From Myxococcota bacterium (GTDB lineage Bacteria; Myxococcota_A; UBA9160; UBA4427): a stretch of DNA of 64,000 bases. The translations under genes were made by a program, and so were the position numbers. Each line of letters starts with the position of its first letter. Positions within the stretch are counted from its first letter, which is position 1. Shown piece by piece: positions 389 through 14,697 of the stretch. Below the pieces are notes generated by a model, which worked only from the letters and a program-made list of their open reading frames with translations, was not told the origin of the DNA and searched no databases. The DNA is taken from positions 4,608,001 to 4,672,000 of the forward strand of contig OZ252299.1 of assembly GCA_965250285.1 (NCBI GenBank), written 5' to 3'.

Positions 389-1663
389 ATGATCGACCCC
401 CACACACTGGCCGAGCGCCGGTCGGACATCGAAGAGAGCTGTCGCAAGCGCGGCGTCGACGTCGACGTCGACGCGCTGATCCGTCTGCACGACGAAGTCA
501 CCGCCCTGGTGACCGCGCAGAACGAGACGAATCGGCTGCGCAACGAGCACCAGAAGGCCGGCAAGCGCAAGATGAGCGATGACGAGCGCCAGGCGCACGT
601 CGAGAAGGGGCGTGCCTTCAAGGACGACCTTTCCGCCATCGAGGAGAAGCTGCGCGGCGCGCAGACTCAGTTCGACGCCGCGCTCACCGGGATCCCCAAC
701 CACACGCACCCCGACGTGCCGGCGGGCGGCGAAGAAGACTTCGCCGTGCTGCAGGATGGCAAGCCGGCGAGCTTCGACTTCGAACCCCGCGACCACCTCG
801 CGCTCTGCGACCAGTGGGATCTGGTCGACTTCGAGAATGCGGCGCGCGTGGCCGGCCAGAAGTTCTACTACCTGAAGAACGAGGCAGCGCTGCTCGAGGT
901 GGCGCTGCAGCGCTTTGCCCTCGAGGTGCTGCTCGAAGAAGGCTTCACCCCCGTCGTGACGCCCGACCTGGCGCGACCCGAGGTGGTCCAGGGGCTCGGC
1001 TTCAATCCCCGCGGTGAAGAGACGCAGATCTACTCGGTCGCCGATCACGACCTGTGTCTCGTGGGTACGTCCGAGATCACGCTGGGTGGTCTCTACGCCG
1101 ATCACATCTTCGACGAGGCCGACCTGCCGCTGCGCCTCGCGGGCATCTCGCACTGCTTCCGCACCGAGGCCGGCGCGCATGGACGCGAGAGCCGGGGTCT
1201 GTACCGGGTGCACCAGTTCACGAAGACCGAGATGTTCGTGTTCTGCAAGCCCGAGCACAGCGACGAAGAGCACGCGAACCTGCGACGCATCGAAGAGCAC
1301 ATCTTCGACGCGCTCGAGATTCCGTATCGCGTGATCGACGTCGCCGCGGGCGACCTCGGATCGCCGGCCTACCGCAAGTTCGATCTCGAGGCCTGGATGC
1401 CCGGTCGGGGTGAAGGCGGTGACTGGGGCGAGATCACGAGCACGTCGAACTGCACCGACTACCAGGCGCGGCGACTCAAGATCCGGTTCCGACGCGAGGG
1501 CAGCAAGAAGAACGAGCTCGTCCATACGCTGAACGGCACCGCGATCTCGAACGCGCGCGCGATCCTCGCCCTGCTCGAGAACCATCAGCAGGCCGATGGC
1601 ACGGTGAACATCCCCGACGCGCTCCGCCCCTGGGTCGGACGCGACCGCATCGGGCCGCGCTGA
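389..1663 (+). CDS. serS: Seryl-tRNA synthetase
   Basis: N-terminal coiled arm; class II motifs GTSE, CFRTEAG, GLYRVHQFTK, EITSTSNCTDYQARRL, HTLNGTA. Confidence 0.98.
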   Translation: MIDPHTLAERRSDIEESCRKRGVDVDVDALIRLHDEVTALVTAQNETNRLRNEHQKAGKRKMSDDERQAHVEKGRAFKDDLSAIEEKLRGAQTQFDAALTGIPNHTHPDVPAGGEEDFAVLQDGKPASFDFEPRDHLALCDQWDLVDFENAARVAGQKFYYLKNEAALLEVALQRFALEVLLEEGFTPVVTPDLARPEVVQGLGFNPRGEETQIYSVADHDLCLVGTSEITLGGLYADHIFDEADLPLRLAGISHCFRTEAGAHGRESRGLYRVHQFTKTEMFVFCKPEHSDEEHANLRRIEEHIFDALEIPYRVIDVAAGDLGSPAYRKFDLEAWMPGRGEGGDWGEITSTSNCTDYQARRLKIRFRREGSKKNELVHTLNGTAISNARAILALLENHQQADGTVNIPDALRPWVGRDRIGPR

Positions 1664-1677
1664 GCGGGGCGGCGGCG

Positions 1678-3663
1678 ATGGCGAAGGCGGGCGGCTCCGG
1701 CTCCGACCAGGAAGGCGATGCCCGCGACCACGCGCCGCTCGTGGTCGGCACGGCCGGCCACATCGATCATGGCAAGACGTCGCTGATTCGCGCGCTCACC
1801 GGTCTCGACCTCGACCGCCTGCCCGAAGAGAAGGCGCGCGGCATCACGATCGATCTCGGCTTCGCGCCCCTCGATCTGCCCGGAGGGCGGCGCATCGGCG
1901 TGGTCGACGTGCCGGGGCACGAGGGACTCGTGCGCACCATGGTCTCGGGGGCGACGGGCATCGACGTCGTGCTGCTCGTCGTCGCCGCCGACGAAGGGGT
2001 CATGCCGCAGACGCGCGAGCACCTCGCGATCTGCGACCTGCTCGACCTGCGACACGGGCTGGTCGCGCTGACGCGGAGCGACCTCGTCGACGACGAAACC
2101 TGCGAGCTCGCCGAAGCCGAGATGCAGGATCTGCTCGCCGGGACGACCCTCGAAGCCGCGCCCATCCTCGCCGTCTCGGCCGTGACCGGCGACGGCATCG
2201 AGGCCCTGCGCGAGACCCTCGCCCGGGTCTGTGTCGAAGCGGCGCCCCGCACCCCACGACAAGGCCCTGCCCGACTGAACGTCGACCGCGCATTCACGAT
2301 GCGGGGCTTCGGCTCGGTGGTGACCGGCACGCTGGTCGGTTCGGATCTCACCGTCGGCGACGCGATCGAGCTGCTGCCCGAGGGCCACACCGCGCGCGTG
2401 CGCGGGCTTCAGCGACACGGCGACGCCGTCGATGCGGCCCACCCCGGTGCACGCTGCGCGGTCAATGTGCAGGGCGTCGAGCAAGACGCGCTGTCACGTG
2501 GGCAGGTCGTCGCGAAGCCCGGCACCGTCCCGACGACCGACGTCGCCGACGTCCACCTCCACTGGCTTGCGACCTCGCCCGAAGAAACGGGCGTCGTCGC
2601 CGTCGAGCTGCTCTGCGGCACGAGTGAACGACGCGCCCGCCTGGCGCCGATCGGCCCCGACGCGACGCTGCGGCCGGGCACCACCGGCTTCGCGCGGCTG
2701 CATGTCGACGGCCCGCCGATCGCCGTGTTGCCCGGCGAGCGATTCATCGTGCGCGGCTTCGCGCGACACGACCTGGCGGGCCACACCCTGGGCGGCGGCC
2801 GCTTCCTCGATATCGCCCCCCCGCGCCGCCGTCGCAGCGACCCCGTGCTCACACACGAGCTCGAAGCGCTCGACACCGGCGACGTCACCGAAGCCCTGGC
2901 GGTGCGCGTCGCGCGCGGCGGGCTCACGGGCGTCGACGAAGCAACGCTGCGCCTGCAGATGGGGATCGAGCGCGAGCCCCTGGCCGCGATCGTCCACGAG
3001 CTCGAGGCGAAGGACCGCATCGTGCGCACGGCCTCGTCGCGGCTCGTCCTGGCCGAAGCCATCACGCGACTCGCCGAGCGGCTGATCGAGGCGCTCGCGG
3101 CCTACCACGAGCGCGAGCCGCTGCGCCCGGGCATGTCGACCGCAGCGCTGCGCGCCACCCTCCCCGACAACGTCGCCCGCGATACGGCCGAGCTGACGCT
3201 CTCGCGCCTCGAGGCCGACGGGCGCATCGTCGCCGAAGGAGATCTCGTGCGGCAGCCCGCACATGCGCCAAGGCTCGACGACCGCGCACAGACGCTCGTC
3301 GGCCGCATCGCGAGCGAGAGCAGCGAAGCGGGCCTCGAGCCCCCCAGCCCGCGCGACCACTGCGCAGCACTCGGCATCGAGCTCACCGAGTACCGCGACC
3401 TGGTCGCGTATCTCGAACGCCAGGGCGCACTCGTGCGTGCGCCGGGCGATCTGTGGTTCGACGCCAGCTCCATCGATGCGCTGCGGGCGCGACTCGTCGC
3501 GCATCTCGAGGCCGAAGGCGAGATCGACACCCAGACCTACAAGAACCTGATCGGCACCACGCGCCGCACGGCCATGCCGCTGATGGAGCTCTTCGACGAG
3601 CTTCAGGTCACCCGCAGGCAGGGCGACGTGCGGGTGCTGCGCAGGGGCGCCGCGGGCAAGTAG
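1678..3663 (+). CDS. selB: Selenocysteine-specific elongation factor
   Basis: [39 protein letters not shown]-terminal winged-helix region ending TRRQGDVR. Confidence 0.96.
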
Positions 3664-3669
3664 AGCGGT

Positions 3670-5145
3670 TCAACGAACCAGCCCGCTCAAGACGTCGGCC
3701 AGGCCGGGCGCGGGTCGCCAACCCAGATACAGCACGACGGCCGTGCACAGACCGAGCACGATCACCTCGGCTGTCGAGAGGCCGGCCGTCCGGCCCGTCG
3801 GCTTCGGCCGCGCAAACATCGCGATGGGCACGGCGAGCAGATAGCGCCAGCTCACGCCGACGCCGACGAGCGCGACGATCACCGGCCACACCAGGCCTTC
3901 GGCCACCGCGGCCGAGAAGAGGTTGTACATCGCCCAGAACCCGCCCGTCCCCGGCAGCCCGGCGAGCGCGAGCAGAAAGAGCGCGAGCGCCGTGGCCGCC
4001 ACTGGGCGCACGCGCGCGAGCCCGGCGAAGTCGTCGACCGTCTCGACATCGCGACCCCCGTGCGCGAACGAGGCCGTCAGGCCATGGGCGCCGAGCACGA
4101 TGAAGGCGTAGACGAAGACGTAGAAGAGCACGGCCTCGAACGCCTCGGTCGACGAGCAGGCCAGCCCGAGCGCCAGATGTCCCGAGTGCGCGATCCCCGC
4201 GCACGCGAGCATGCGGCGCACCGAACGCGCAACGAGGGCCAGACCGTGCCCGACCACGATGCTCGCGACGGCCAGCACCTGAAAGAGCCCCGTCACCGGA
4301 GCCAGGCCTTCGGGGATCGCCTCATCGAGCAGTCGCAGCAGCACGATCACTGCGGTCGTCGGCATCGCGACCGCGAGATAGCCGGCGGTCACGTTCGGCG
4401 CGCCCTGGAAGACGTCGGAGACCCACTGGTGGAACGGAAAGAGCGCGAGCTTGAAGAGCAGCCCGCAGAGCAGCAGCCCGAGCCCGGCGAGGCCGAGCCA
4501 GTCGCTGCCATCGAGCCCAGCCCAGAGCGCGCCATAGCCAAGCTCGCCGGTCGCCCCGTAGAGCAGCGCCATGCCGAAGAGCATCAGACCGCTCGCGAAG
4601 CCACCGGTGAGGTGCAGCTTCAGACCGGCCTCGAGGCTCTCGGCGCGGCGCACGTCGTACGCGGCGAGCAGCGACAGGCAGATCGACGAGAGTTCGAGAC
4701 CGACGTAGAGAAACGCGAGATGGCCGGCCCCGATCGCGACGAACATGCCCGCAGAGGCGAGGAGGACGAGCGCGTGAAAGGGGCCCTGCTCGAGCCGCGC
4801 GGCCGATAGCATCGTGACCGAGAGCCACAGCGTCGCGAGCGCGGCCGAGGCGAGAATCAACGTACCGACGCTCGTCAGCCGATCGACGAGGAAGAGCCCT
4901 GTACGCACGTCGAAGGCCGGCTCGACCGCGCCGACGAGCGAGCTCCAGGCCGAGAGCATGACCGCGCCGAGGGCGACCGAGCTCGTGAGGGCGAGCAATG
5001 GACCGCGCCGTGAAGGCGCGCCTTCGACGCCGCCGCGTCGCCGCCGGACCGACGCCGCGCCGTCGATCAGCAGCGCGACCAGCGCACCGAGCGTCACGAA
5101 GAGCACGGGCGCAAAGACGTCCCAGCGCGGGATCATGTCGATCAC
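3670..5145 (-). CDS. nuoN: NuoN-like antiporter-type subunit (divergent)
   Basis: YVGLELSS, SLEAGLK, FKLALFPFHQWVSDVFQGAP, LAGLPGTGGF; last gene of the A-H-J-K-L-M-N run. Confidence 0.88.
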   Translation of the reverse strand: MIDMIPRWDVFAPVLFVTLGALVALLIDGAASVRRRRGGVEGAPSRRGPLLALTSSVALGAVMLSAWSSLVGAVEPAFDVRTGLFLVDRLTSVGTLILASAALATLWLSVTMLSAARLEQGPFHALVLLASAGMFVAIGAGHLAFLYVGLELSSICLSLLAAYDVRRAESLEAGLKLHLTGGFASGLMLFGMALLYGATGELGYGALWAGLDGSDWLGLAGLGLLLCGLLFKLALFPFHQWVSDVFQGAPNVTAGYLAVAMPTTAVIVLLRLLDEAIPEGLAPVTGLFQVLAVASIVVGHGLALVARSVRRMLACAGIAHSGHLALGLACSSTEAFEAVLFYVFVYAFIVLGAHGLTASFAHGGRDVETVDDFAGLARVRPVAATALALFLLALAGLPGTGGFWAMYNLFSAAVAEGLVWPVIVALVGVGVSWRYLLAVPIAMFARPKPTGRTAGLSTAEVIVLGLCTAVVLYLGWRPAPGLADVLSGLVR

Positions 5146-5185
5146 GGCCGCAGCGCCTCTGCTCGGTCCGCCTGAAGGGGCACGA

Positions 5186-6820
5186 TCAACGGGCCTCCGG
5201 CCGAACGTCGGCGCTTGCCTGTGCGTCGTCGAACTCGGCAGGGGCGCCGCGCAGCTCCATCACGTGAAGCACCTCGAGCACCGCGGGCTCGACACGTCGG
5301 AGCATCGGGTTCGGCATCACGCCGAGCACCACCAGCGAGACGATCAACGCGAGCACGCCGAATCGCTCGCCCCAACCGAGATCGATCAAGCCGCGGTTCT
5401 CCGGATTCTCGACCGGCCCGAGCGCGACCGCGCGGTAGCCGCGCAGGAGACATGCACCGGTGAGCAGCACCCCGAGTAGCGCGACGAGCGTGAGCACGGG
5501 CGAGACCGCGAACCCGCCTGCCAGCACGAGCAGCTCGCCCACGAAGCCGAGAGTCCCGGGGATCCCCGACATCGCGAAGAGGGCCGTCGCGAGCAGCAGC
5601 GAGAACACCGGCATCGGCTTCGCGAGGCCCCCGTACGCCGCGAGCACGGTCGAGCCTCGCCGCTCGACCAGCAGGTTCACCAGGGTGAGCAGCGCCGCGC
5701 TTGCGAGCGCCACGCTCCAGCCATGCACGAGCGCGCCGACGATGCCGTGCTCGCCGAGCGTGAAGACGCCGAGCGTGACGAGCCCGAGCGACGCGGTGTG
5801 CGCGTAGGCCTGTAGTGTGCGCAGGTCACTCTGCGCGCCGGCGACGAGCGCGCCGTAGGCCAGCCCGACGACCGAGAGCATGCTCACGAAGGGTGCGACG
5901 GCAGCGGCGCCCTCGGGCAGCAGCGGCAGGCCGACTCGTACCACGAGATAGATCCCCACGACCCCCTGCAGCACGTCGAGCAGCACGAGGCCGTCCGGCG
6001 GCGCCTGCGCGGCGGCGCGCGCCGACCACACGTGGAAGGGGAAGGCGCGCAGTCGCATCGCGATCGAAACGAGCAGCGCGACGAAGAGTGTCGACTGCGT
6101 CGCCCAGCCGGGTCCGGTCGTCGGCACGTCGACGTCGAGGAGACCGGGCGCTGCGTAGCCTGCTCCGCTCACGAGATCGAACACCCAGACGTGCAGCTGT
6201 TCATAGCCGAGGCGGTGTACGACGATCAAGACGAAGAGCATGCCCATGCTGCCGAGTGCGGCCGGGATCAACCACGCGTAGGCCGCCGCCACCGGTCGCT
6301 CGCCGCCCCAGCTCACGATCATGAAGCCGATGGGCAGGAGCATCAGCGTCCAGAACAAGTGCATCTGCATCACGTTCATCGAGAGCAGCGCACCCAGCAT
6401 CAGAGACTGCAAAGCGAGCACCCGCGCGACGGCGCCGGCCGTGAAACGCGAGGCATCACCGGGCGTCGACCAGCATGCGGTCGGCACGATGAAGAGCACC
6501 AGCAAAACGGGGAAGAGCGAGAGACCGTCGACCGCGAAGTAGAAATGGAAGCCGTACTGCGGCAGCCACTCCCAACGCTCGACGTGCTGTAGCCCGAGCA
6601 GCTCGGGATCGAAGCCTGACCACAACCCCGCCGCAGCGACCGCGAACTGCAGCGTCGTGAAGCCGATCCCGAAGCGTCGCCACACGCCCACGGGCGCGCG
6701 CTCGACACCGACGGCGCGGGCGACCAGCGCGTTCAGCGCCAGCACGAGCGCGGCCGCAACCAGCGGCGCGAGCACGAGCGCCGTCAGCCATCCGCCGAAC
6801 GTGTCGGCCCCGGCTCCCAT
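5186..6820 (-). CDS. nuoM: NuoM-like subunit (divergent)
   Basis: FAVDGLSL, FPFHVW, YGGLAKPMP, GIPGTLGFVGELLVL, LGVMPNP; polytopic. Confidence 0.87.
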   Translation of the reverse strand: MGAGADTFGGWLTALVLAPLVAAALVLALNALVARAVGVERAPVGVWRRFGIGFTTLQFAVAAAGLWSGFDPELLGLQHVERWEWLPQYGFHFYFAVDGLSLFPVLLVLFIVPTACWSTPGDASRFTAGAVARVLALQSLMLGALLSMNVMQMHLFWTLMLLPIGFMIVSWGGERPVAAAYAWLIPAALGSMGMLFVLIVVHRLGYEQLHVWVFDLVSGAGYAAPGLLDVDVPTTGPGWATQSTLFVALLVSIAMRLRAFPFHVWSARAAAQAPPDGLVLLDVLQGVVGIYLVVRVGLPLLPEGAAAVAPFVSMLSVVGLAYGALVAGAQSDLRTLQAYAHTASLGLVTLGVFTLGEHGIVGALVHGWSVALASAALLTLVNLLVERRGSTVLAAYGGLAKPMPVFSLLLATALFAMSGIPGTLGFVGELLVLAGGFAVSPVLTLVALLGVLLTGACLLRGYRAVALGPVENPENRGLIDLGWGERFGVLALIVSLVVLGVMPNPMLRRVEPAVLEVLHVMELRGAPAEFDDAQASADVRPEAR

Positions 6821-6821
6821 T

Positions 6822-8864
6822 TCAGAGCACTCCGCCGAGCGTCAGCCCGAGCACCACGAGCACCGCCCCCACCAACATCGATGCGAGCACACCCTGCGCA
6901 TAGCCGGCCTGGCCGTAGCGATCGAAGAGGCCGCCCACCCAGTCGGCCAGCTTCGCAGGGGCCGTCTCGAGCACGAACACGAGCAGGCGCTCTCCGATCG
7001 GCCCCCGCGCGAGCTGCCGCGCCACGGCCGAGCTCGGCACGATCACCAGCCAGCCGAAGACATTGTCGGGATCGAGCGCGTCGACGACGCGGCGCCCCGG
7101 CCCTCGAAACCGGTTGCGCAGATCGAGCACCGGCTCGGCCCGATTGCGAAACAACAGCCGGGCGCCGACCGCGCCGGCGGCCATCGCGAGCACCTGCAGG
7201 CCGATCCACGTCGACTGCCGACCCGGCTCACCGCGCGGCGGATGAACGTCGGGCAGCACGGGCTCGAAGAACACCGACAGACTGTTCATCTGCTCGATCT
7301 CGAGCGCGTCACCGAAGATCTGAGACACGCCGATCACACCGCCGAACGCGCACAGGACGGCGAGCGCGCCGAGGCTCCAGAGCGAGGGCGTGCGCGGCTC
7401 CCAGGCGAGGCGACGTCGCGCGGGGTCAAACGAGCTGCGCACGGGAAACACCAGGTAGTAGAGACGGATCGTCGTCAAGGCCGTGAAGAACACGGTCAGC
7501 AGCACGAGCACGCACAGCGTCAGATGCCCGGGCAGCTCGACCGCGCGGTCGGCGGCGTCGAGCACCTGCTCGATCGAGAAGAACGCGATCGTCGGCGGCA
7601 GCCCCGCCATGGTCAGCGCACCCACGAGCGTGAAGGCCTGGGGCCACACCATCGCGAGGCCCAGCGGCTGCAGCTTCGTGCGATCGTGCTGATGCCCGCG
7701 CGCCTTGCTCGCGGTCGCGATCCCGAGAAACAGAAGCGCCTTGGCACACGCATGCGCCGTGACGTGAAAGAGCGCAACGTCGTAGGCACCGAGCCCGACG
7801 GCGAGCGCCGCGATCGAGAGCTGGCTGCCCGTCGTCCACGTCAGGATCGCGCGGCCGTCGTCTTCGGCGAGCGAGGCGAGCACGAAGAGCAGCGCGCCCG
7901 CGGCCGCCACCCAGCAGAGCGCCGTCTCGAGCAACGGCACCGCCTCGAACAGAAAGCCGACCCGCACGAGCAGCAGAATGCCGGTGCACGGCATCGCGAC
8001 CGCCTGCATGAACGCCGACGCCGGCGAGGGCGCGACCGAGGCGGCGCGTAGACCGAACATGAAGGGCAGCACGAAGAGGCGGGACGCCGCGGCCAGCGCG
8101 AAGAGCAGCCCGGTGTAGACGGCCGGCGCGACTCCCGGTGCCTCCCCCTCGTGGGCAGGCGGCGGGACGGCGAGCAGCGTGTCGCGGGCGGCGCGGAGGC
8201 TCGACCAGGACAGGTCGGCGCCGCCGCCATCGACGAGCTGCCAGAAGACGCTCAGGAGCCCGGCGAGGAAGAGCGCGTCGCCGGTCCGTTGCCGCAGCGA
8301 CACCTTCTGGAGCGCCGCGCGCCGATCGGCTTCGCCGTACCAGAAGCCGACGAGCAGCCGACCGAAGAGGCCGCACGACACCCACGCGGCGAACGCCAGC
8401 ACCATGTCGTCGGCGAGCACGAAGAGCAGGACGGCCGCGAGCAACGCACACGCGTAGGCGCAGAAGCGCTGCAAGCCGCCGTCGTCGTGGTCATCGCGCG
8501 CCATGTGGATGCCCGCGTGGATCTGGATCGCGAGACCGACGTAGCTCGCGACGAGGCAGAGCAGAGCGGCGACCGGGTCGAATCGCAGGACGAACGCGAC
8601 ATCGAGCGCTTCGGCGCCGACGCCGAGCCCGAACCAGCTGCCGACGCGATCGACGATCGGCACCTCGATGCCGCCGCTCACGAGCCGTGCAAAGAAGAGG
8701 GTCGAGAGCAGCGCCGGCACGGCGAAACCCGCGGCCGCGACCCAGGCGATCGTGCGATCGGCGAGCTGACGTCGCAGCACCCCGCTGGCGATGCCAAGGG
8801 CGAGGGCGACGACGAGCGGCGCAGCGGGGATCCACACCAGATCAGCGGGGCCGGTCCAGCTCAT
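6822..8864 (-). CDS. nuoL: NuoL-like subunit (divergent)
   Basis: LLVGFWY, TGD, SQL, ALFHVTAHACAKALLFL, MAGLPP; long C-terminal extension. Confidence 0.87.
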   Translation of the reverse strand: MSWTGPADLVWIPAAPLVVALALGIASGVLRRQLADRTIAWVAAAGFAVPALLSTLFFARLVSGGIEVPIVDRVGSWFGLGVGAEALDVAFVLRFDPVAALLCLVASYVGLAIQIHAGIHMARDDHDDGGLQRFCAYACALLAAVLLFVLADDMVLAFAAWVSCGLFGRLLVGFWYGEADRRAALQKVSLRQRTGDALFLAGLLSVFWQLVDGGGADLSWSSLRAARDTLLAVPPPAHEGEAPGVAPAVYTGLLFALAAASRLFVLPFMFGLRAASVAPSPASAFMQAVAMPCTGILLLVRVGFLFEAVPLLETALCWVAAAGALLFVLASLAEDDGRAILTWTTGSQLSIAALAVGLGAYDVALFHVTAHACAKALLFLGIATASKARGHQHDRTKLQPLGLAMVWPQAFTLVGALTMAGLPPTIAFFSIEQVLDAADRAVELPGHLTLCVLVLLTVFFTALTTIRLYYLVFPVRSSFDPARRRLAWEPRTPSLWSLGALAVLCAFGGVIGVSQIFGDALEIEQMNSLSVFFEPVLPDVHPPRGEPGRQSTWIGLQVLAMAAGAVGARLLFRNRAEPVLDLRNRFRGPGRRVVDALDPDNVFGWLVIVPSSAVARQLARGPIGERLLVFVLETAPAKLADWVGGLFDRYGQAGYAQGVLASMLVGAVLVVLGLTLGGVL

Positions 8865-9247
8865 CCCGCCTGCTCCTGTGCAGGCGTCGCGCTGCCTTCT
8901 GCGCCCCGCCCGGCGTGACCGAGACGGTTCGCGTCATCGACGTCGGCGCTGCCGCGTCGGCGCACGACGGCCAGCGCGAGTCCCATGCCGACCAGGAGCT
9001 GCACCACGCCGACGACGAGCACGATGAAGGCAAAGGCCTGGCCTTCGAGCGTGGGTGGCGCGCCGGCGCCGAGCGCGCGACCCGCCCACATGCGATTGAA
9101 ACCGACGAACGCGAGTGCGCTCGCGAACGTCACCAGCTGCAGACCGAAGAGCACGACGACGGCGTGACGCCGGCGAATCGATCCGACCAGACCGAGCGCA
9201 AACAGCAGGATCGCGAGACCGAGGACGTGGTCGACACCGACCATCAA
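8861..9247 (-). CDS. nuoK: NuoK-like subunit (start TTG 9247 or ATG 9244)
   Basis: LFALGLVG..RR, GQAFAFIV, three hydrophobic helices; lies between nuoJ and nuoL. Confidence 0.85.
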   Translation of the reverse strand: MMVGVDHVLGLAILLFALGLVGSIRRRHAVVVLFGLQLVTFASALAFVGFNRMWAGRALGAGAPPTLEGQAFAFIVLVVGVVQLLVGMGLALAVVRRRGSADVDDANRLGHAGRGAEGSATPAQEQAG

Positions 9248-9753
9248 CGATCTCCCTCGTCGGCCAGCACGCGACTCGCGACGAGACCCACGAGCAGGAT
9301 CAGCGAGAGACCGACGAGCGGCGCCGCAAACTCGCGGTAGAGGGTCTCACCGAGGGCGAACACGCTCCCGAGCCCCGCGTCGACGGGGAGGTCGGGCCGC
9401 GGCGTGCTCTCGAGCGTGAGCAGCACGACGCCGGCGAGCGATGCAGCGGCGATGACGCCGAGGGCATTCAGGACGCGCCGACGCACCGAGCGCGCGGGCA
9501 GGGGCTCACTCTCGAGATCGACGAGCAACACGACGAAGAGCAGACCGACGCCGGCCGCCCCGATCACGAGGAGCAGCTGCGCGACGCCGAGGAAGGGCGC
9601 GGCGAGCAGCGTGAACAGACCCGCCAGCGCCAGCTGACAGAGCACCGCGCCCATGGCCGCCCCCACGGTCGTCCGCGCCGTCAGGATCAAGACGAGCGCG
9701 CCGACCACCGCGACGGCGGCGAGCCCCTGGAAGCCGATCGACGCCGCGCTCAC
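9244..9753 (-). CDS. nuoJ: NuoJ-like subunit
   Basis: GTG start overlapping the nuoH stop (GTGA); LAAPFLGVAQL..GA..V.LLFVVLL and LGETLY; C-terminal part of ORF 9244..10752. Confidence 0.82.
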   Translation of the reverse strand: MSAASIGFQGLAAVAVVGALVLILTARTTVGAAMGAVLCQLALAGLFTLLAAPFLGVAQLLLVIGAAGVGLLFVVLLVDLESEPLPARSVRRRVLNALGVIAAASLAGVVLLTLESTPRPDLPVDAGLGSVFALGETLYREFAAPLVGLSLILLVGLVASRVLADEGDR

Positions 9754-10715
9754 GAGAGCCCCGGACGCGCGACGAGCCACCAGCCGGTCAGAAAGACGTT
9801 CACGATCGAGAGCGGCACGAAGAGCCGAAAGCAGAGAAAGCTGACCCGCGCTTCGGGCAGCGGCGCCATGCGGCTCCCGACCCACCGGATGAAGCCGAAC
9901 ACGAGCAGCGTCTTGACCAGAAAAGAGGTCGCATGCAGCGCGGCACACAGCAGCGCGCCGACCGTGAGTCCATAGCTCTTCGTCAGCACGGGCTCGAGCG
10001 TCGATTCGGCGAGCCACGGAATCGACCATCCACCGAGACCCAGCGTGACGACGTAGCCGGCGAGCAGAAGCGTGTTCACGAAGTCGGCGACGACGGCGTT
10101 GCCCAGCCGCAGGCCGCTGCCCTCGGCGTGCAGCGAAGTGAGTGACTCGGCGCTCGCCGCTGCGAGGTCGAAGGGCGGCAGGCGCAGCGCACCGAGCCCG
10201 CAGATCAAGACGAGCCCCACCGCCAGCGGGTTCAGCAGCACGCCCCAGAGCGGCAGGCGCACTGTGATGCGACCCGCTTCGGGCCATGCGAAGCCGGCGG
10301 TCGAGACGATCTCGGCGGGCGTGGTCGTCGTGTCTTGTCGGGCGGCGATGTCGACGAGTTCGAGCGAGCCGTACACGAGGGCGAGCGGCAGGGTGGCCAG
10401 CGCGAGGGCCACACCGTACGAGAGCGTCTGCGCACCGGCGCCGAGGCAGGCTCGGCGCGCGGCTTCGTCGCGCACCGACCAGCCCATTGCGGCGAACCCG
10501 AGCGCCGACATACAGACGAGCGCGACGGGCACGAGGATCGACGCGTCGACGTCGGCGACGACGAGCGACACGGGCCGCTCGCCGACCAGATACGACGAAC
10601 CGAACGGGAGCACACCCAGGCTGGCGACGGCGACGACGACCGTCCAGGCCGGACCGAGCCGATCGAGCCAGGGGATCGTGCGTGCCGACGTCGGCTGCGT
10701 CGCATCGGCGCTCAC
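9750..10715 (-). CDS. nuoH: NuoH-like subunit lacking the usual N-terminal helix
   Basis: VLPFG, AQTLSY, GSLELVDI, PFDL, LGLGGW, FLVKT; GTG 10715 chosen as start (ORF open to 10784). Confidence 0.82.
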   Translation of the reverse strand: MSADATQPTSARTIPWLDRLGPAWTVVVAVASLGVLPFGSSYLVGERPVSLVVADVDASILVPVALVCMSALGFAAMGWSVRDEAARRACLGAGAQTLSYGVALALATLPLALVYGSLELVDIAARQDTTTTPAEIVSTAGFAWPEAGRITVRLPLWGVLLNPLAVGLVLICGLGALRLPPFDLAAASAESLTSLHAEGSGLRLGNAVVADFVNTLLLAGYVVTLGLGGWSIPWLAESTLEPVLTKSYGLTVGALLCAALHATSFLVKTLLVFGFIRWVGSRMAPLPEARVSFLCFRLFVPLSIVNVFLTGWWLVARPGLS

Positions 10716-10758
10716 GCCAACCCCCTCGGAGCGTGCGGTGAACCAACGGCATTCGCGT

Positions 10759-11094
10759 TCATGGGCCGTCGTCCTCGAGGCCACCTCGGGTGATCAGGTG
10801 TGCGAACCCGACGAGCAGCGGGGCCGTGATCAGCGCCGCGACCCCGAGCCCCGCCCGGCCGAGCGTCTCGACCCGCGCAGCCCAGGCCGCCAGCAGCAGA
10901 ACCAGGGCCCCGAAGGCGACGAACAGCGCGGCGTAGACCTGGAAACGCGCGAGCGCGCGCAGCGAGTCGACCGGCGCGTCGGGCGGATCGCGGCGTGGGC
11001 GCCGGGGCGCGACGCGCACGTGAAAGAGCACGAGCAGGCCAGCGATCAGGCCGCCGACGGCGGTCAGCGTGAGCAGCGCCGCGTAGTCGCCCAT
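10759..11094 (-). CDS. nuoA: NuoA-like subunit (divergent)
   Basis: 111 aa with three hydrophobic segments; RFQVYAALFVAF..LVLLLAAWA and C-terminal RGGLE match the NuoA pattern; first gene of the operon. Confidence 0.72.
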   Translation of the reverse strand: MGDYAALLTLTAVGGLIAGLLVLFHVRVAPRRPRRDPPDAPVDSLRALARFQVYAALFVAFGALVLLLAAWAARVETLGRAGLGVAALITAPLLVGFAHLITRGGLEDDGP

Positions 11095-11342
11095 GCGCCT
11101 CCCCGCGCCCGCACGGATCGGTCTGCGCACACGGGTCGGCAGACGCCGAGCGTGGGCAGCGTGCGTGCATTCGGGGGGTTCGAGGGGGGACGACGAGACA
11201 GGCCTCGTCGTCGAAAAACGTAGCCCGGCGAGCCCCGAAGCGTCAACGAGATTGGGCGGCTCCGCGGGCGGGCGGCGTGGCGGACGGGCTCGGTGCGACC
11301 CGTGCACGGTCATTCGAGGCGGGGTGTGGTATCTCGGCGGGG

Positions 11343-12356
11343 ATGAATGTGCCCATCACCGTCCTCGGCTCCGGCAGCTTCGGCACCTGCCTCGCGATCC
11401 TCTGCGCGCGCGAGAACCCGGTTCGATTGTGGTCGCGATCGCAGAAGGTCGTCGACGCGATCAACGAGACGCGTCGCAATCCGCAGTACCTGACTGAATT
11501 CGAGCTGCCCGAGTCGGTCGAGGCCACGGCCGATCTGGCCACGGCGCTCGAGGGCAGTGAGATGATCGTCATCGCCGTGCCGAGTCACGGGTTGCGTGAG
11601 GTGATGGCCAAGGCCGCCCCGTTCATCCCCGACGGCGCGATTCTCGTCTCGACCGTCAAGGGCATCGAGTACGAGACCGGGATGACGATGCATCAGGTGC
11701 TCGAGGACGTGGTGCCCGAGACGCACCATCGCAAGATCGTGGCGCTCTCGGGCCCCTCTTTCGCCCGCGAGATCGCGGAGCACCGCGCCACCGTCGTCAC
11801 CGTCGCCTGCGCCGACGAGGCCTTCGCCATCGCCGTGCAGGAGACGCTCTCCTGCCCCTGGTTTCGCTGTTACTCGAGCACCGACGTGATGGGCGTCGAG
11901 ATCGGCGGCGCCCTCAAGAACGTGATCGCGATCGCCGTGGGCATGAGCGACGGCATGGACGGTTCGCTCAACAGCCGCGCGGCGCTCATGACCCGGGGCC
12001 TGGCCGAGATCGCGCGCCTCGCCGAGCGGCTCGGCGGCGATCCGACGACGCTGCACGGACTCTCGGGCATGGGCGATCTCGTGCTGACGTGCACCGGCGA
12101 CCTCTCGCGCAATCGGCGGGTCGGCCTCGCGCTCGGCCGAGGTCAGCGCCTCGAGGAGATCATTCGCGACCTGGGCGAGGTGGCCGAGGGGGTGCGGACG
12201 ACCCAGGCGGCCTGCCGGCTCGCGGCGCGCGTCGGCGTCGAGCTGCCGATCTGCGAGATGGTGCGGCAGGTGATCGACGGCGAGATCACGCCGACCCGCG
12301 CGGGCACCGAGCTCATGAACCGCCAGCTCGGCAGCGAGCGAGGCGGCGGCCGCTAG
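11343..12356 (+). CDS. gpsA: NAD(P)H-dependent glycerol-3-phosphate dehydrogenase
   Basis: GSGSFGT, LSGPSFA, GVEIGGALKNVIAIA, GMGDLVLTC, SRNRRVG. Confidence 0.97.
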   Translation: MNVPITVLGSGSFGTCLAILCARENPVRLWSRSQKVVDAINETRRNPQYLTEFELPESVEATADLATALEGSEMIVIAVPSHGLREVMAKAAPFIPDGAILVSTVKGIEYETGMTMHQVLEDVVPETHHRKIVALSGPSFAREIAEHRATVVTVACADEAFAIAVQETLSCPWFRCYSSTDVMGVEIGGALKNVIAIAVGMSDGMDGSLNSRAALMTRGLAEIARLAERLGGDPTTLHGLSGMGDLVLTCTGDLSRNRRVGLALGRGQRLEEIIRDLGEVAEGVRTTQAACRLAARVGVELPICEMVRQVIDGEITPTRAGTELMNRQLGSERGGGR

Positions 12357-12470
12357 CGGCGTTCGAAGCGAGACAGCGTGCAGCGCGTCACTTTGCGACC
12401 GTGTTCGCCAATCGAAAACCGAGCCGGAAGCGCTGCCGCAAGTCCCCTCCAACGCTACGGTTTCGCGATC

Positions 12471-12764
12471 ATGAAATCGAATTTCAACGAGGGCGACGCG
12501 GGCGAGCGCGTCTTCTCGCTCGATCAGGCTCAGCCGGGCACCGAGGTGGTGGTCGAACGCATCGATCTCGACCATGCCCCGGTCGGCCGTCGTCTCGTCG
12601 ACCTGGGCCTGCTCCCCGAGACGCGCCTGAAGGTCGTGCGGCGCGCCCCGCTCGGCGACCCCACGGAGTTCGCCCTGCGCGGCTACCGGCTGTGTCTCCG
12701 CCGCAGCGACGCGGCCCAGATCTGGGTGCGCGAGAGCCCCGCCCCCTCACAGGACGACGCGTGA
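12471..12764 (+). CDS. feoA: Ferrous iron transport protein A
   Basis: RRLVDLGLLP, RAPLGDP, RGYRLCLRR. Confidence 0.93.
   Translation: MKSNFNEGDAGERVFSLDQAQPGTEVVVERIDLDHAPVGRRLVDLGLLPETRLKVVRRAPLGDPTEFALRGYRLCLRRSDAAQIWVRESPAPSQDDA
12472..12486. promoter_or_regulatory. Candidate Fur-like iron-regulator box
   Basis: AT-rich inverted repeat TGAAAT-CGA-ATTTCA at the start of feoAB in a very GC-rich background. Confidence 0.5.
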
Positions 12765-12816
12765 TCGACGCCCTGCTCGAAGCCCGCGCATGGCCCCTGG
12801 TGCAGAGGACGATCGC

Positions 12817-14697
12817 TTGAGCGACGCGACGCTCACTCTCGGACTGGTCGGCAGCCCGAACGCGGGCAAGACGACCCTCTTCAACGCGCTGACCGGTCTG
12901 CGCGCGAAGGTGGGGAACTACCCCGGCGTCACGGTCGAGCGGCGCGAGGGACGGGTTCAGCTCGGAGATCACGCTGCGCGTCTGATCGACCTGCCGGGCA
13001 CCTACTCGCTCGATCCGCTGAGCCCCGATGAAGCCGTGGTCAACGAGGTGCTCGACGGACGCATCGACGGCCTGGCGGCCCCCGAGGCCCTGGTCGTCGT
13101 CGCCGACGCGTGCTCGCTCGAGCGATCGCTGCTGCTGGTCGGGCAGGTGCTGCGGCGTGAGCAGCCGACGGTGCTGGTGCTGACGATGTACGACGAGCTC
13201 GCCGCGCGCGGGGGGGAGCTCGACCTTCCGCGCCTCGAAGACGCCCTCGGCGTGCCGGTGGTGCCCGTGGTCGGCCACAAGGGCGTCGGCCTCGAGCGGC
13301 TGCGCACCCTGCTCGGCGATCCGAGCGGATGGTCTCGCCCCGCCCTGCTGCCGCCCGAGACGACCGAAGAGCGGGCGGCGTGGGTCTCGTCGATCCTCGA
13401 CCACGTCGTGACCGACGCGCCGCGCGACCACGACCTGACCGAGCGCATCGACCGCGTCGTCCTGCACCCGGTGGCCGGCCCCCTGCTGTTCGTGGCCGTG
13501 ATGGTGACGTTCTTCCAGCTGATCTTCGCCTGGGCGAGCCCCGCGATGGACGCGATCGACGCAGGCGTCGGCGTGCTGGCGTCGGGGGCGCGCGGCGTGC
13601 TGCCACCGGGGCTCGTCGCCGACTTCGTCGCCGATGGCCTCATCGCGGGGGTCGGGTCGGTCGTGATCTTCGTCCCGCAGATCACGCTGCTCTTCGGGTT
13701 GCTCTACCTGCTCGAGGACGTGGGCTACATGGCACGCGCCGCCTTCGTCGTCGACCGCGCCATGGGTCGCATCGGCCTCGAGGGCCGCGCGTTCGTCGCG
13801 CTGCTCTCGTCGTACGCCTGCGCGGTGCCGGGCATCATGGCGACCCGCACGATCCCCTCGCCCCGAGACCGTCTGGTCACGATCCTCGTCGCCCCCTTGA
13901 TGACGTGCTCGGCGCGGCTGCCGGTATACGCGCTGCTGATCGGCGCATTCGTGCCCGAGCGCACGCTCGCGGGCTTCATCGGCCTGCAGGGCCTCGTGCT
14001 CTTCGCGCTCTATTTCGTCGCGCCGGTCTTCGCGATGATCGTTGCGGCCCTGCTCAAGCGGACGATCGCGCGCAGCGACGCGATGCCCTTCGTGATGGAG
14101 CTGCCCACGTATCGGGTGCCCACCTTCAAGCTCTGGGGCGCGCAGCTGTGGCGCAGTGTCTCGGCCTTCTTGAAGCGCGCAGGCACGATCATCCTGCTCG
14201 CCTCGATGGTGCTCTGGGTGCTGCTCACGTTCCCCCACGTCGAGCCGCCCGCCGGGCTGGACGAAGAGCAGGCCGCTTCATACGCCCTCGAGAACAGCTT
14301 CGCCGGACGGGTCGGACATGCCATCGAGCCCGCCATCGAACCGCTCGGCTTCGACTGGAAGATCGGCGTCGGACTCGTCGCCAGCCTCGCCGCACGCGAG
14401 GTCATCGTGGCGACGCTGGCGCAGATCTACGCCGCCACAGACGAAGACGCGTCGCTCCGCGGCGCGATCCGCAGGGACATCGATCCGCGCACGGGCGAGC
14501 GCGTCTTCGGCCCGGCCACCGTCGGGTCACTGCTCGTCTTCTTCGTGTTCGCGCTGCAGTGCGTCTCGACGATCGCGATCATCGCGCGCGAGACGAACTC
14601 GTGGCGCTGGCCCTTGTTCGCGTTCACGTATCTGCTCGTGCTCGCCTACGGGGCATCGTTCGTCACCTATCGCGTGGTCAGCGCGTTGACCGCGTGA
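12817..14697 (+). CDS. feoB: Ferrous iron transporter B
   Basis: GSPNAGKTTLFN, VGNYPGVTVE, DLPGTYSL, CAVPGIMATR, CSARLP; TTG start after GAGGA (alternative ATG 12790). Confidence 0.96.
   Translation: MSDATLTLGLVGSPNAGKTTLFNALTGLRAKVGNYPGVTVERREGRVQLGDHAARLIDLPGTYSLDPLSPDEAVVNEVLDGRIDGLAAPEALVVVADACSLERSLLLVGQVLRREQPTVLVLTMYDELAARGGELDLPRLEDALGVPVVPVVGHKGVGLERLRTLLGDPSGWSRPALLPPETTEERAAWVSSILDHVVTDAPRDHDLTERIDRVVLHPVAGPLLFVAVMVTFFQLIFAWASPAMDAIDAGVGVLASGARGVLPPGLVADFVADGLIAGVGSVVIFVPQITLLFGLLYLLEDVGYMARAAFVVDRAMGRIGLEGRAFVALLSSYACAVPGIMATRTIPSPRDRLVTILVAPLMTCSARLPVYALLIGAFVPERTLAGFIGLQGLVLFALYFVAPVFAMIVAALLKRTIARSDAMPFVMELPTYRVPTFKLWGAQLWRSVSAFLKRAGTIILLASMVLWVLLTFPHVEPPAGLDEEQAASYALENSFAGRVGHAIEPAIEPLGFDWKIGVGLVASLAAREVIVATLAQIYAATDEDASLRGAIRRDIDPRTGERVFGPATVGSLLVFFVFALQCVSTIAIIARETNSWRWPLFAFTYLLVLAYGASFVTYRVVSALTA

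Follow-up and report, generated by a model that had tools for sequence, protein, structure and literature searches.

The DNA analysed here, called the window throughout, is a stretch of 64,000 nucleotides (positions 4,608,001-4,672,000) of the single-contig 6.25 Mb genome of a Myxococcota bacterium, labelled G000 and belonging to genus g1 of its family. Between window positions 3670 and 11094, on the minus strand, lie seven genes for homologues of the membrane-arm subunits of respiratory complex I, namely NuoA, NuoH, NuoJ, NuoK, NuoL, NuoM and NuoN. They are the only remnant of complex I that was detected in this genome, charged residues required for proton translocation have been replaced in them, and they are under purifying selection. 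The genes and the features on either side of them are as follows, in window coordinates.

10759..11094, minus strand: nuoA-like gene, 111 amino acids (aa); PF00507, E 2.5e-6; ATG start with a GGGGAGG motif upstream
9750..10715, minus strand: nuoH-like gene, 321 aa from the GTG at 10715; PF00146, E 7.4e-31, profile positions 64-297 of 298
9244..9753, minus strand: nuoJ-like gene, 169 aa; PF00499, E 3.9e-17; GTG start overlapping the nuoH stop (GTGA)
8861..9247, minus strand: nuoK-like gene, 128 aa; PF00420 and alignments to Protein Data Bank chains
6822..8864, minus strand: nuoL-like gene, 680 aa; PF00361 and PF00662
5186..6820, minus strand: nuoM-like gene, 544 aa; PF00361
3670..5145, minus strand: nuoN-like gene, 491 aa; PF00361
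11095..11276, no strand: intergenic region of 182 bp between the divergent nuoA and gpsA, presumed to be the operon promoter region
11277..14697, plus strand: gpsA, feoA and feoB, divergent from nuoA and forming the upstream flank (gpsA by Pfam and synteny)
389..3663, plus strand: serS and selB, convergent with nuoN and forming the downstream flank (Pfam and synteny)

A first-pass annotation, made from the letters of the window alone, had described seven intact open reading frames (ORFs) in the order nuoA-H-J-K-L-M-N with no nuoB-G or nuoI in the operon, and this description was borne out by the ORF map and by Pfam and NCBIfam searches of the ORFs in the cluster. Pfam places all seven in the expected membrane-arm families and the best NCBIfam names are those of NuoA, NuoH, NuoJ, NuoK, NuoL, NuoM and NuoN, with the curated cut-off reached by two of the seven best hits (NuoM, TIGR01972; NuoK, NF004320). 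A look-up of NuoH in a protein atlas returned NuoH-family clusters only (score 0.90). None of the seven ORFs contains a stop or a frameshift. The H/J, J/K and K/L junctions overlap by 4 nt, nuoL and nuoM are adjacent and the remaining genes are separated by short gaps; Shine-Dalgarno-like motifs stand at the gene starts and the genes are translationally coupled. The most likely starts of nuoH and nuoJ are the GTG codons at 10715 and 9753, the nuoH frame being open also from a GTG at 10784 (344 aa). Between the end of nuoA and the likely nuoH start there are 43 nt, where relatives carry nuoEFG. A consensus scan of the nuoA/gpsA intergenic region found no sigma-70-like site, and promoter, terminator and Rfam scans yielded nothing informative. 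At the other end of the cluster the stops of selB and nuoN are 6 nt apart (window 3663-3670), a distance too short for a terminator hairpin between them.

The cluster had initially been taken for a paralogous second arm beside a canonical complex I, serving as an alternative arm, an assembly scaffold or a decoy, and a search for a canonical nuo operon elsewhere in the genome had been proposed. Searches of the whole genome by Pfam and tblastn located none. NuoH was matched once in G000, by the window copy (Pfam, on a complete single contig that is 95% complete by markers), and PF00346 (NuoD), PF01058 (NuoB) and PF00329 (NuoC) had no match in the whole genome, while tblastn with NuoB, NuoCD and NuoI of E. 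coli and with NuoB, NuoD and NuoI of five to seven relatives gave only generic ferredoxin-type hits. The genome therefore has no NuoB, NuoC, NuoD or NuoI and no second NuoH, and because it encodes no canonical complex I the alternative-arm, scaffold and decoy readings fail here, leaving a paralogous arm with next to no probability. An arrangement of that kind has some footing among relatives: in addition to the split cluster studied here, G014:C490 and G022:C62 each encode a further NuoD (E about 1e-110) together with a NuoH, probably as a contiguous canonical nuo operon beside the stripped one. The first-pass annotation had also reckoned with the case of a sole membrane arm that pumps normally; the genome indeed has no other arm, and nothing suggests that this one pumps normally.

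Hits that resembled further complex I genes were assigned to other systems. The tblastn hits to NuoE, NuoF and NuoG were considered as a possible N module and rejected, as they fall in G000:C1:5253314-5258392, where a MobA-like gene, a 563-aa NuoE-NuoF fusion and a 1004-aa NuoG-like/molybdopterin protein stand together. This locus is an NAD-type formate dehydrogenase, and the genome also has selB. A fourth PF00361 gene was likewise rejected as a further nuo gene; it is DabB (580 aa), adjoining DabA (832 aa) at G000:C1:5070778-5075015, the two forming a system for the uptake of inorganic carbon that is based on a NuoL-like subunit. The NuoL-like part of DabB is 39% identical to E. coli NuoL, and the NuoL of the window is less close. 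PF01058 was found in one of five relatives tested (G001, G007, G041, G019 and G052), and this single match, in the same-genus genome G001, was rejected as NuoB, being the small subunit of a [NiFe] hydrogenase beside its large subunit. The hydrogenase cluster (HypB-like protein, small subunit, large subunit and maturation protease) lies on G001:C194, a contig to which nothing in G000 corresponds at the nucleotide level, and is accessory DNA or else contamination (put at 4% by markers).

The origin of the cluster is evident from its position. Canonical relatives of the same family or order (G031, G005, G016 and G020) carry their complex I genes in two clusters, nuoA-E-F-G-H-J-K-L-M-N and a distant nuoB...nuoI-C-D, the first of which shares with the window the flanking serS-selB, convergent with nuoN, and gpsA-feoA-feoB, divergent from nuoA. 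These flanks recur in genera g1, g7, g19, g17, g13, g14 and g16. Because its flanks match those of the canonical cluster, the cluster of the window and the relatives' nuoA-EFG-H-JKLMN are positional orthologues, nuoEFG having been removed from the former. As for the second cluster, the genes that flank nuoB and nuoICD in G017, G023 and G008 have directly neighbouring counterparts in G000, with a gap of 30 bp at the ICD site, and blastn and tblastn found no relic of nuoB or nuoICD at these syntenic sites at E<=10. Five genomes of g7 and g19 were examined at the syntenic Q-module site; in all five the site is uninterrupted on a single contig and lacks both nuoB and nuoICD. Because these sites are contiguous on single contigs, the absences are real deletions and not binning gaps. 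The cluster has descended vertically, and the genes of the N and Q modules are absent.

By comparison with the consensus, the first-pass annotation had listed a series of lost charged residues. We read the substitutions (E. coli numbering throughout) from HMMER alignments to solved chains and from MAFFT alignments with E. coli and the canonical relatives, and every listed change was reproduced by these two independent aligners; the charged residues are truly replaced, and not shifted. Both membrane glutamates of NuoK are glutamine (E36Q and E72Q, own positions Q37 and Q83), in a protein that also has 10 extra residues inserted in a loop and extends into a C-terminal tail. In NuoA, D79G and E81L turn the FDxE motif into FGAL and the loop between transmembrane helices (TM) 1 and 2, described as gone, is shortened (alignment to E. 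coli NuoA chains; MAFFT), while in NuoJ the TM3 motif VYAGA reads LVIGA, with valine in place of the tyrosine. The four TM changes claimed for NuoL are E144V, K229R, H254Q and K399I, accompanied by D400E; those claimed for NuoM are E144T, K234R and K265V, accompanied by H322S and H348V; and the lost TM8 and TM12 lysines of NuoN are K247P and K395M. NuoH, for which no such list had been made, has E157G, E216A, R148G and R209L, with the loop glutamates E220 and E228 remaining, and has lost TM1 and the TM1-2 loop, which line the quinone cavity: the Pfam match does not begin until profile position 64, and the protein has no more than about 15-38 residues ahead of the equivalent of TM2.

The relay of TM5 Glu, TM7 Lys, TM8 Lys/His and TM12 Lys/Glu is replaced at four of four positions in NuoL, three of four in NuoM and two of four in NuoN, and the E channel is replaced in NuoK (Q/Q), NuoA (G/L) and NuoH (E157 to G), together with the TM3 tyrosine of NuoJ (V). 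The residues named are invariant by computation from E. coli through the canonical relatives, and they are needed for proton translocation. Among columns invariant in this sense, G000 keeps 44 of 99 charged columns against 88 of 125 glycine/proline columns (Fisher p 1.2e-4), and because the charged columns are kept less often the loss of charge is not a matter of chance. At NuoL E144 the genera with a stripped arm have Q, V, S, A, V, M, I and G, and such variation in the replacing residue fits a lifted constraint on charge.

Some polar residues survive, including those that the first-pass annotation had singled out as retained: E133 (TM5) and K217 (TM7) of NuoN, E407 (TM12) of NuoM, and the HxxxHxxxK motif of NuoL (H334, H338 and K342). 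To these can be added H224, E154 and K158 of NuoN, D178 of NuoL and H241 of NuoM. Such residues could be thought to serve a residual ion transporter that conducts or exchanges H+ or Na+ passively, in an Mrp-like or channel-like manner, driven by the gradient of sodium or protons set up by the Na+-translocating NADH:quinone oxidoreductase (Na+-NQR), and the genome does lack Mrp, its PF00361 hits being nuoL, nuoM and nuoN of the window and DabB. Against this, no subunit has a complete Glu-Lys-Lys(Glu) chain, the connecting acidic residues of NuoK, NuoJ, NuoA and NuoH are gone, and the retained residues differ in g7 and g19, so that there is no common pathway. With four CPA-type exchangers and one NhaA already present in G000, the idea that the arm is kept to meet a need for an antiporter was rejected as well, and we regard a residual transporter as rather unlikely.

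The loss of charge has left the predicted folds in place. An AlphaFold2 model of NuoH, built on a 17-sequence alignment, had a mean predicted local distance difference test score (pLDDT) of 85.7 and a predicted TM-score (pTM) of 0.85, and Foldseek matched it along its entire length to NdhA/NuoH/ND1 chains (TMq 0.66-0.77). For NuoL the model (16-sequence alignment; pLDDT 76.8, pTM 0.83) aligned with NuoL chains over 672-693 columns (TMq 0.73-0.78) and has the long C-terminal helices and last TM, though the last ~110 residues have a pLDDT of only 41-63. NuoH and NuoL are therefore predicted to retain canonical folds.

The strength of selection was measured as the ratio of nonsynonymous to synonymous substitution rates (dN/dS), calculated on pairwise alignments with our own Nei-Gojobori script. 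Between G000 and G001 the ratios for nuoA, nuoH, nuoJ, nuoK, nuoL, nuoM and nuoN were 0.16, 0.41, 0.35, 0.18, 0.21, 0.28 and 0.14 (dS 0.53-0.83), beside 0.15, 0.34, 0.26, 0.34 and 0.19 for the flanking serS, selB, gpsA, feoA and feoB in the same pair. As a control, the wrong reading frames gave values above 1. The correctly delimited nuo genes of a canonical same-genus pair (G020 and G006, of the sister genus g6) gave 0.14-0.35, a g17 pair 0.15-0.28 and g7 pairs 0.13-0.31, the last with dS saturated. Purifying selection on the arm is thus as strong as on its neighbours and on a working complex I. Random decay among relatives, which the first-pass annotation had named as evidence against its reading, is not what was found, the ratios in G000 and G001 lying at 0.14-0.41 and no stop occurring in the relatives' copies examined, so that the locus does not look like a cluster of pseudogenes. 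Its proposal of selection on the fold and not on pumping, on the other hand, is supported by these ratios, by the predicted canonical folds and by the heavier loss of charged than of glycine/proline columns.

The age of the changes can be judged from the 562 columns that are invariant among canonical enzymes, of which 278 are kept by both G000 and G001, 209 have the same new residue in both, 62 differ and 13 are gaps. Because the changed columns are shared so much more often than they differ (209 against 62), most of the change predates the split of G000 and G001 and has been conserved since.

We considered whether the arm could nevertheless be a functionless relic, in which the genes stay open only since truncated or misfolded polytopic products are harmful, so that point mutations are purged until the whole operon is deleted. 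In keeping with such a relic, no newly conserved residues were found, sites that were once invariant and have changed are now about as variable between G000 and G001 as the background (23% against 25%), the rate of evolution in the stripped lineages is roughly double that in the canonical ones (29-45% against 54-64% identity), and three genomes (G012, G015 and G033) are without the arm. However, dN/dS is the same as in a working complex I pair and in the housekeeping neighbours, the arm persists over genus-level divergence (about 30-40% identity) with no stop in the copies examined, and clean deletions do happen here, since nuoEFG, nuoB and nuoICD are gone and the arm stayed, as it did after each of the separate losses of the Q module described below. 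A relic is thus unlikely in our view.

The stripped arm is not peculiar to G000. A search for loci related to the cluster turned up the contig of G001 alone. In answer to whether relatives keep the operon, at least eight genera in this family were found to have a charge-stripped arm, a diverged Q module being kept in five (g4, g8, g13, g14 and g17) and absent from three (g1, g7 and g19). Of the 68 genomes of the family, NuoD was present in 52 and missing from 16, namely both g1, all six g7 and both g19 genomes, G012, G015 and four single genomes of otherwise NuoD-positive genera. A NuoM-like gene was present in all five further g7 and g19 genomes searched. NuoJ was not detected by BLAST in g7 or g19, where a gap of about 0.5 kb sits between nuoH and nuoK, and their nuoJ may be too diverged for this method. 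A full HMMER search with NuoK against 1.84 billion cluster representatives matched 542 of them at E<=0.001. In the 150 best of these 542, both glutamates are present in 113 and one or both are missing in 37 (15 QQ, 8 EQ, 4 QH, 3 QE and others), with a loss in 14 of the best 20. Because 37 of the best 150 representatives have lost a glutamate, the state is not confined to this genome.

Those genera that keep a Q module would represent an earlier stage. The NuoD proteins of G004 (g4), G008 (g8), G013 (g13), G023 (g14) and G017 (g17) match Pfam at E 1e-60 to 1e-75, against about 1e-100 for canonical NuoD. The arms of these five genomes lack NuoL E144 and K399, NuoN K247 and NuoH E157, most of them lack one or both NuoK glutamates, and nuoF and nuoG are still in the cluster of G013. 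In G008, G023 and G017 the four cysteines of NuoB and the eight of NuoI are all kept, while the NuoD positions H224 and Y273, which we take to be the quinone ligands, read D/R/R and G/F/S, respectively. The nuoB...nuoI-C-D enzyme of these three genomes resembles complex I and may, judging by these positions, no longer reduce quinone. The stripped state thus appears from the sequences to predate the loss of the Q module and to be more widespread, and because the NuoD of sister genera had already lost its quinone-ligand positions, the complex of this clade had departed from canonical chemistry while it still had a Q module.

In a tree of concatenated NuoL, NuoM and NuoN rooted on E. coli, all stripped arms formed one clade (Shimodaira-Hasegawa-like approximate likelihood-ratio test, SH-aLRT, 98), within which g7 was sister to g4 and g19 sister to g17 (SH-aLRT 100 each), and the g1 stem was long (1.43). 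Monophyly of the arms without NuoD was rejected by the approximately unbiased (AU) test (deltaL 343.7, p 1.25e-45; iqtree2, LG+G4, fast search). Because the AU test rejects a single clade and synteny is conserved, the Q module was lost several separate times with the arm retained, at least twice and probably three times. With identities of 29-45% among the stripped lineages and 54-64% among canonical genera, a long-branch effect could account for the single origin of the stripping; that grouping has no bearing on the g4+g7 and g17+g19 pairs, whose identities are higher.

That sister genera dock diverged NuoB, NuoI, NuoC and NuoD, with the Fe-S cysteines kept and the quinone-ligand histidine and tyrosine lost, raises the further possibility that the bare arm is a docking base on which a non-homologous soluble or membrane module is anchored, at the position of the Q module or elsewhere. 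However, the operon of g1, g7 and g19 neither contains nor adjoins an extra gene, its neighbours being the same housekeeping genes, and the docking surface of the g1 arm has decayed with the loss of TM1 and the following loop from NuoH and of the loop from NuoA. A docking base is accordingly improbable.

As to physiology, NqrA is encoded in 66 of the 68 family genomes, G000 included, and because it is nearly universal NADH:quinone oxidoreduction is independent of complex I across the family. A course of events can be proposed in which Na+-NQR would have made the redox function of complex I dispensable, the coupling residues would have been replaced first, in one clade, and the redox modules would then have been deleted in several lineages separately, with the arm kept each time. 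The product would be an arm that folds and likely assembles as before, a body of roughly 50 transmembrane helices by homology, and that would be unable to act as a redox-driven proton pump.

Taken together, the reading to which we give about an even chance is that the arm assembles, cannot pump and is kept as a non-catalytic membrane complex with a structural or scaffolding part to play. From the sequences, the seven subunits would be expected to assemble and not to conduct ions, and their retained role would be structural. Several points weigh against it. The structural role is reached by elimination, and synteny revealed no partner and no conserved neighbour gene. The surviving polar residues of NuoN, NuoL and NuoM listed above may still allow some residual ion conduction, and no polar residue newly conserved across the stripped clade was found. 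The dN/dS values come from a Nei-Gojobori script applied to GC-rich genomes with strong codon bias. Furthermore, the absence of the arm from G012 and G015, of the same family, and G033, of the same order, makes it dispensable in some backgrounds. NuoD and NuoH are absent from all three and weak NuoM-like hits occur only in G012, so that these genomes would be the end point of the series, with complex I gone altogether.

More tentatively, the clade may have made a catalytically dead 'pseudo-complex I', stripped of its quinone ligands, E channel and relay, whose redox modules were dropped at least twice independently and whose arm keeps a second, non-bioenergetic job, such as supercomplex or membrane organisation, which canonical complex I shares unnoticed. 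The membrane arm is usually viewed as a proton pump only, whereas here, in a natural lineage that has shed electron input, quinone site and most of the relay, all seven subunits are conserved as strongly as in the working enzyme. The arm is in this respect a natural separation-of-function mutant, in which the role of the architecture besides pumping, and structural as opposed to catalytic residues, can be told apart. The family as a whole forms a graded series of the canonical complex, a stripped arm with a Q module, a stripped arm alone and nothing, and could show in what way a large respiratory complex is taken apart after Na+-NQR has made it redundant.

Among known systems, the Mrp-type Na+/H+ antiporter shares with the window arm a stand-alone membrane complex of NuoL/M/N-like and NuoK-like subunits without a redox module. 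However, Mrp has MrpB, MrpE, MrpF and MrpG, no NuoH or NuoA and an intact Lys/Glu relay, while the window arm has NuoH and NuoA and has lost the relay, and the Nuo models of NCBIfam match its L, M and N proteins with much higher scores than the Mrp models do. The diverged complex I of g4, g8, g13, g14 and g17 is alike in synteny, in belonging to the same L+M+N clade and in the types of substitution, and differs in that nuoB...nuoI-C-D is still present. With the membrane arm of bacterial complex I (E. coli, 3RKO and 7Z7S; T. thermophilus, 4HE8) the cluster has in common the seven families, their order and the predicted folds of NuoH and NuoL, including the C-terminal extension of NuoL. Unlike that arm, the one in G000 has no N or Q module and no TM1 and adjoining loop in NuoH, has lost relay residues in NuoL, NuoM and NuoN, and has the NuoK glutamates, the NuoA aspartate and glutamate and the NuoJ tyrosine replaced. 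In the full-text literature accessible to search, with subscription journals and supplements outside its scope, no description of a stand-alone or residue-stripped arm was found; in the part seen of one survey, a 'Nuo-Partial' class is all that is defined (PMC12361115). As far as could be seen, what is new here is the graded series within one family and the repeated, independent loss of the Q module after the arm had been stripped.

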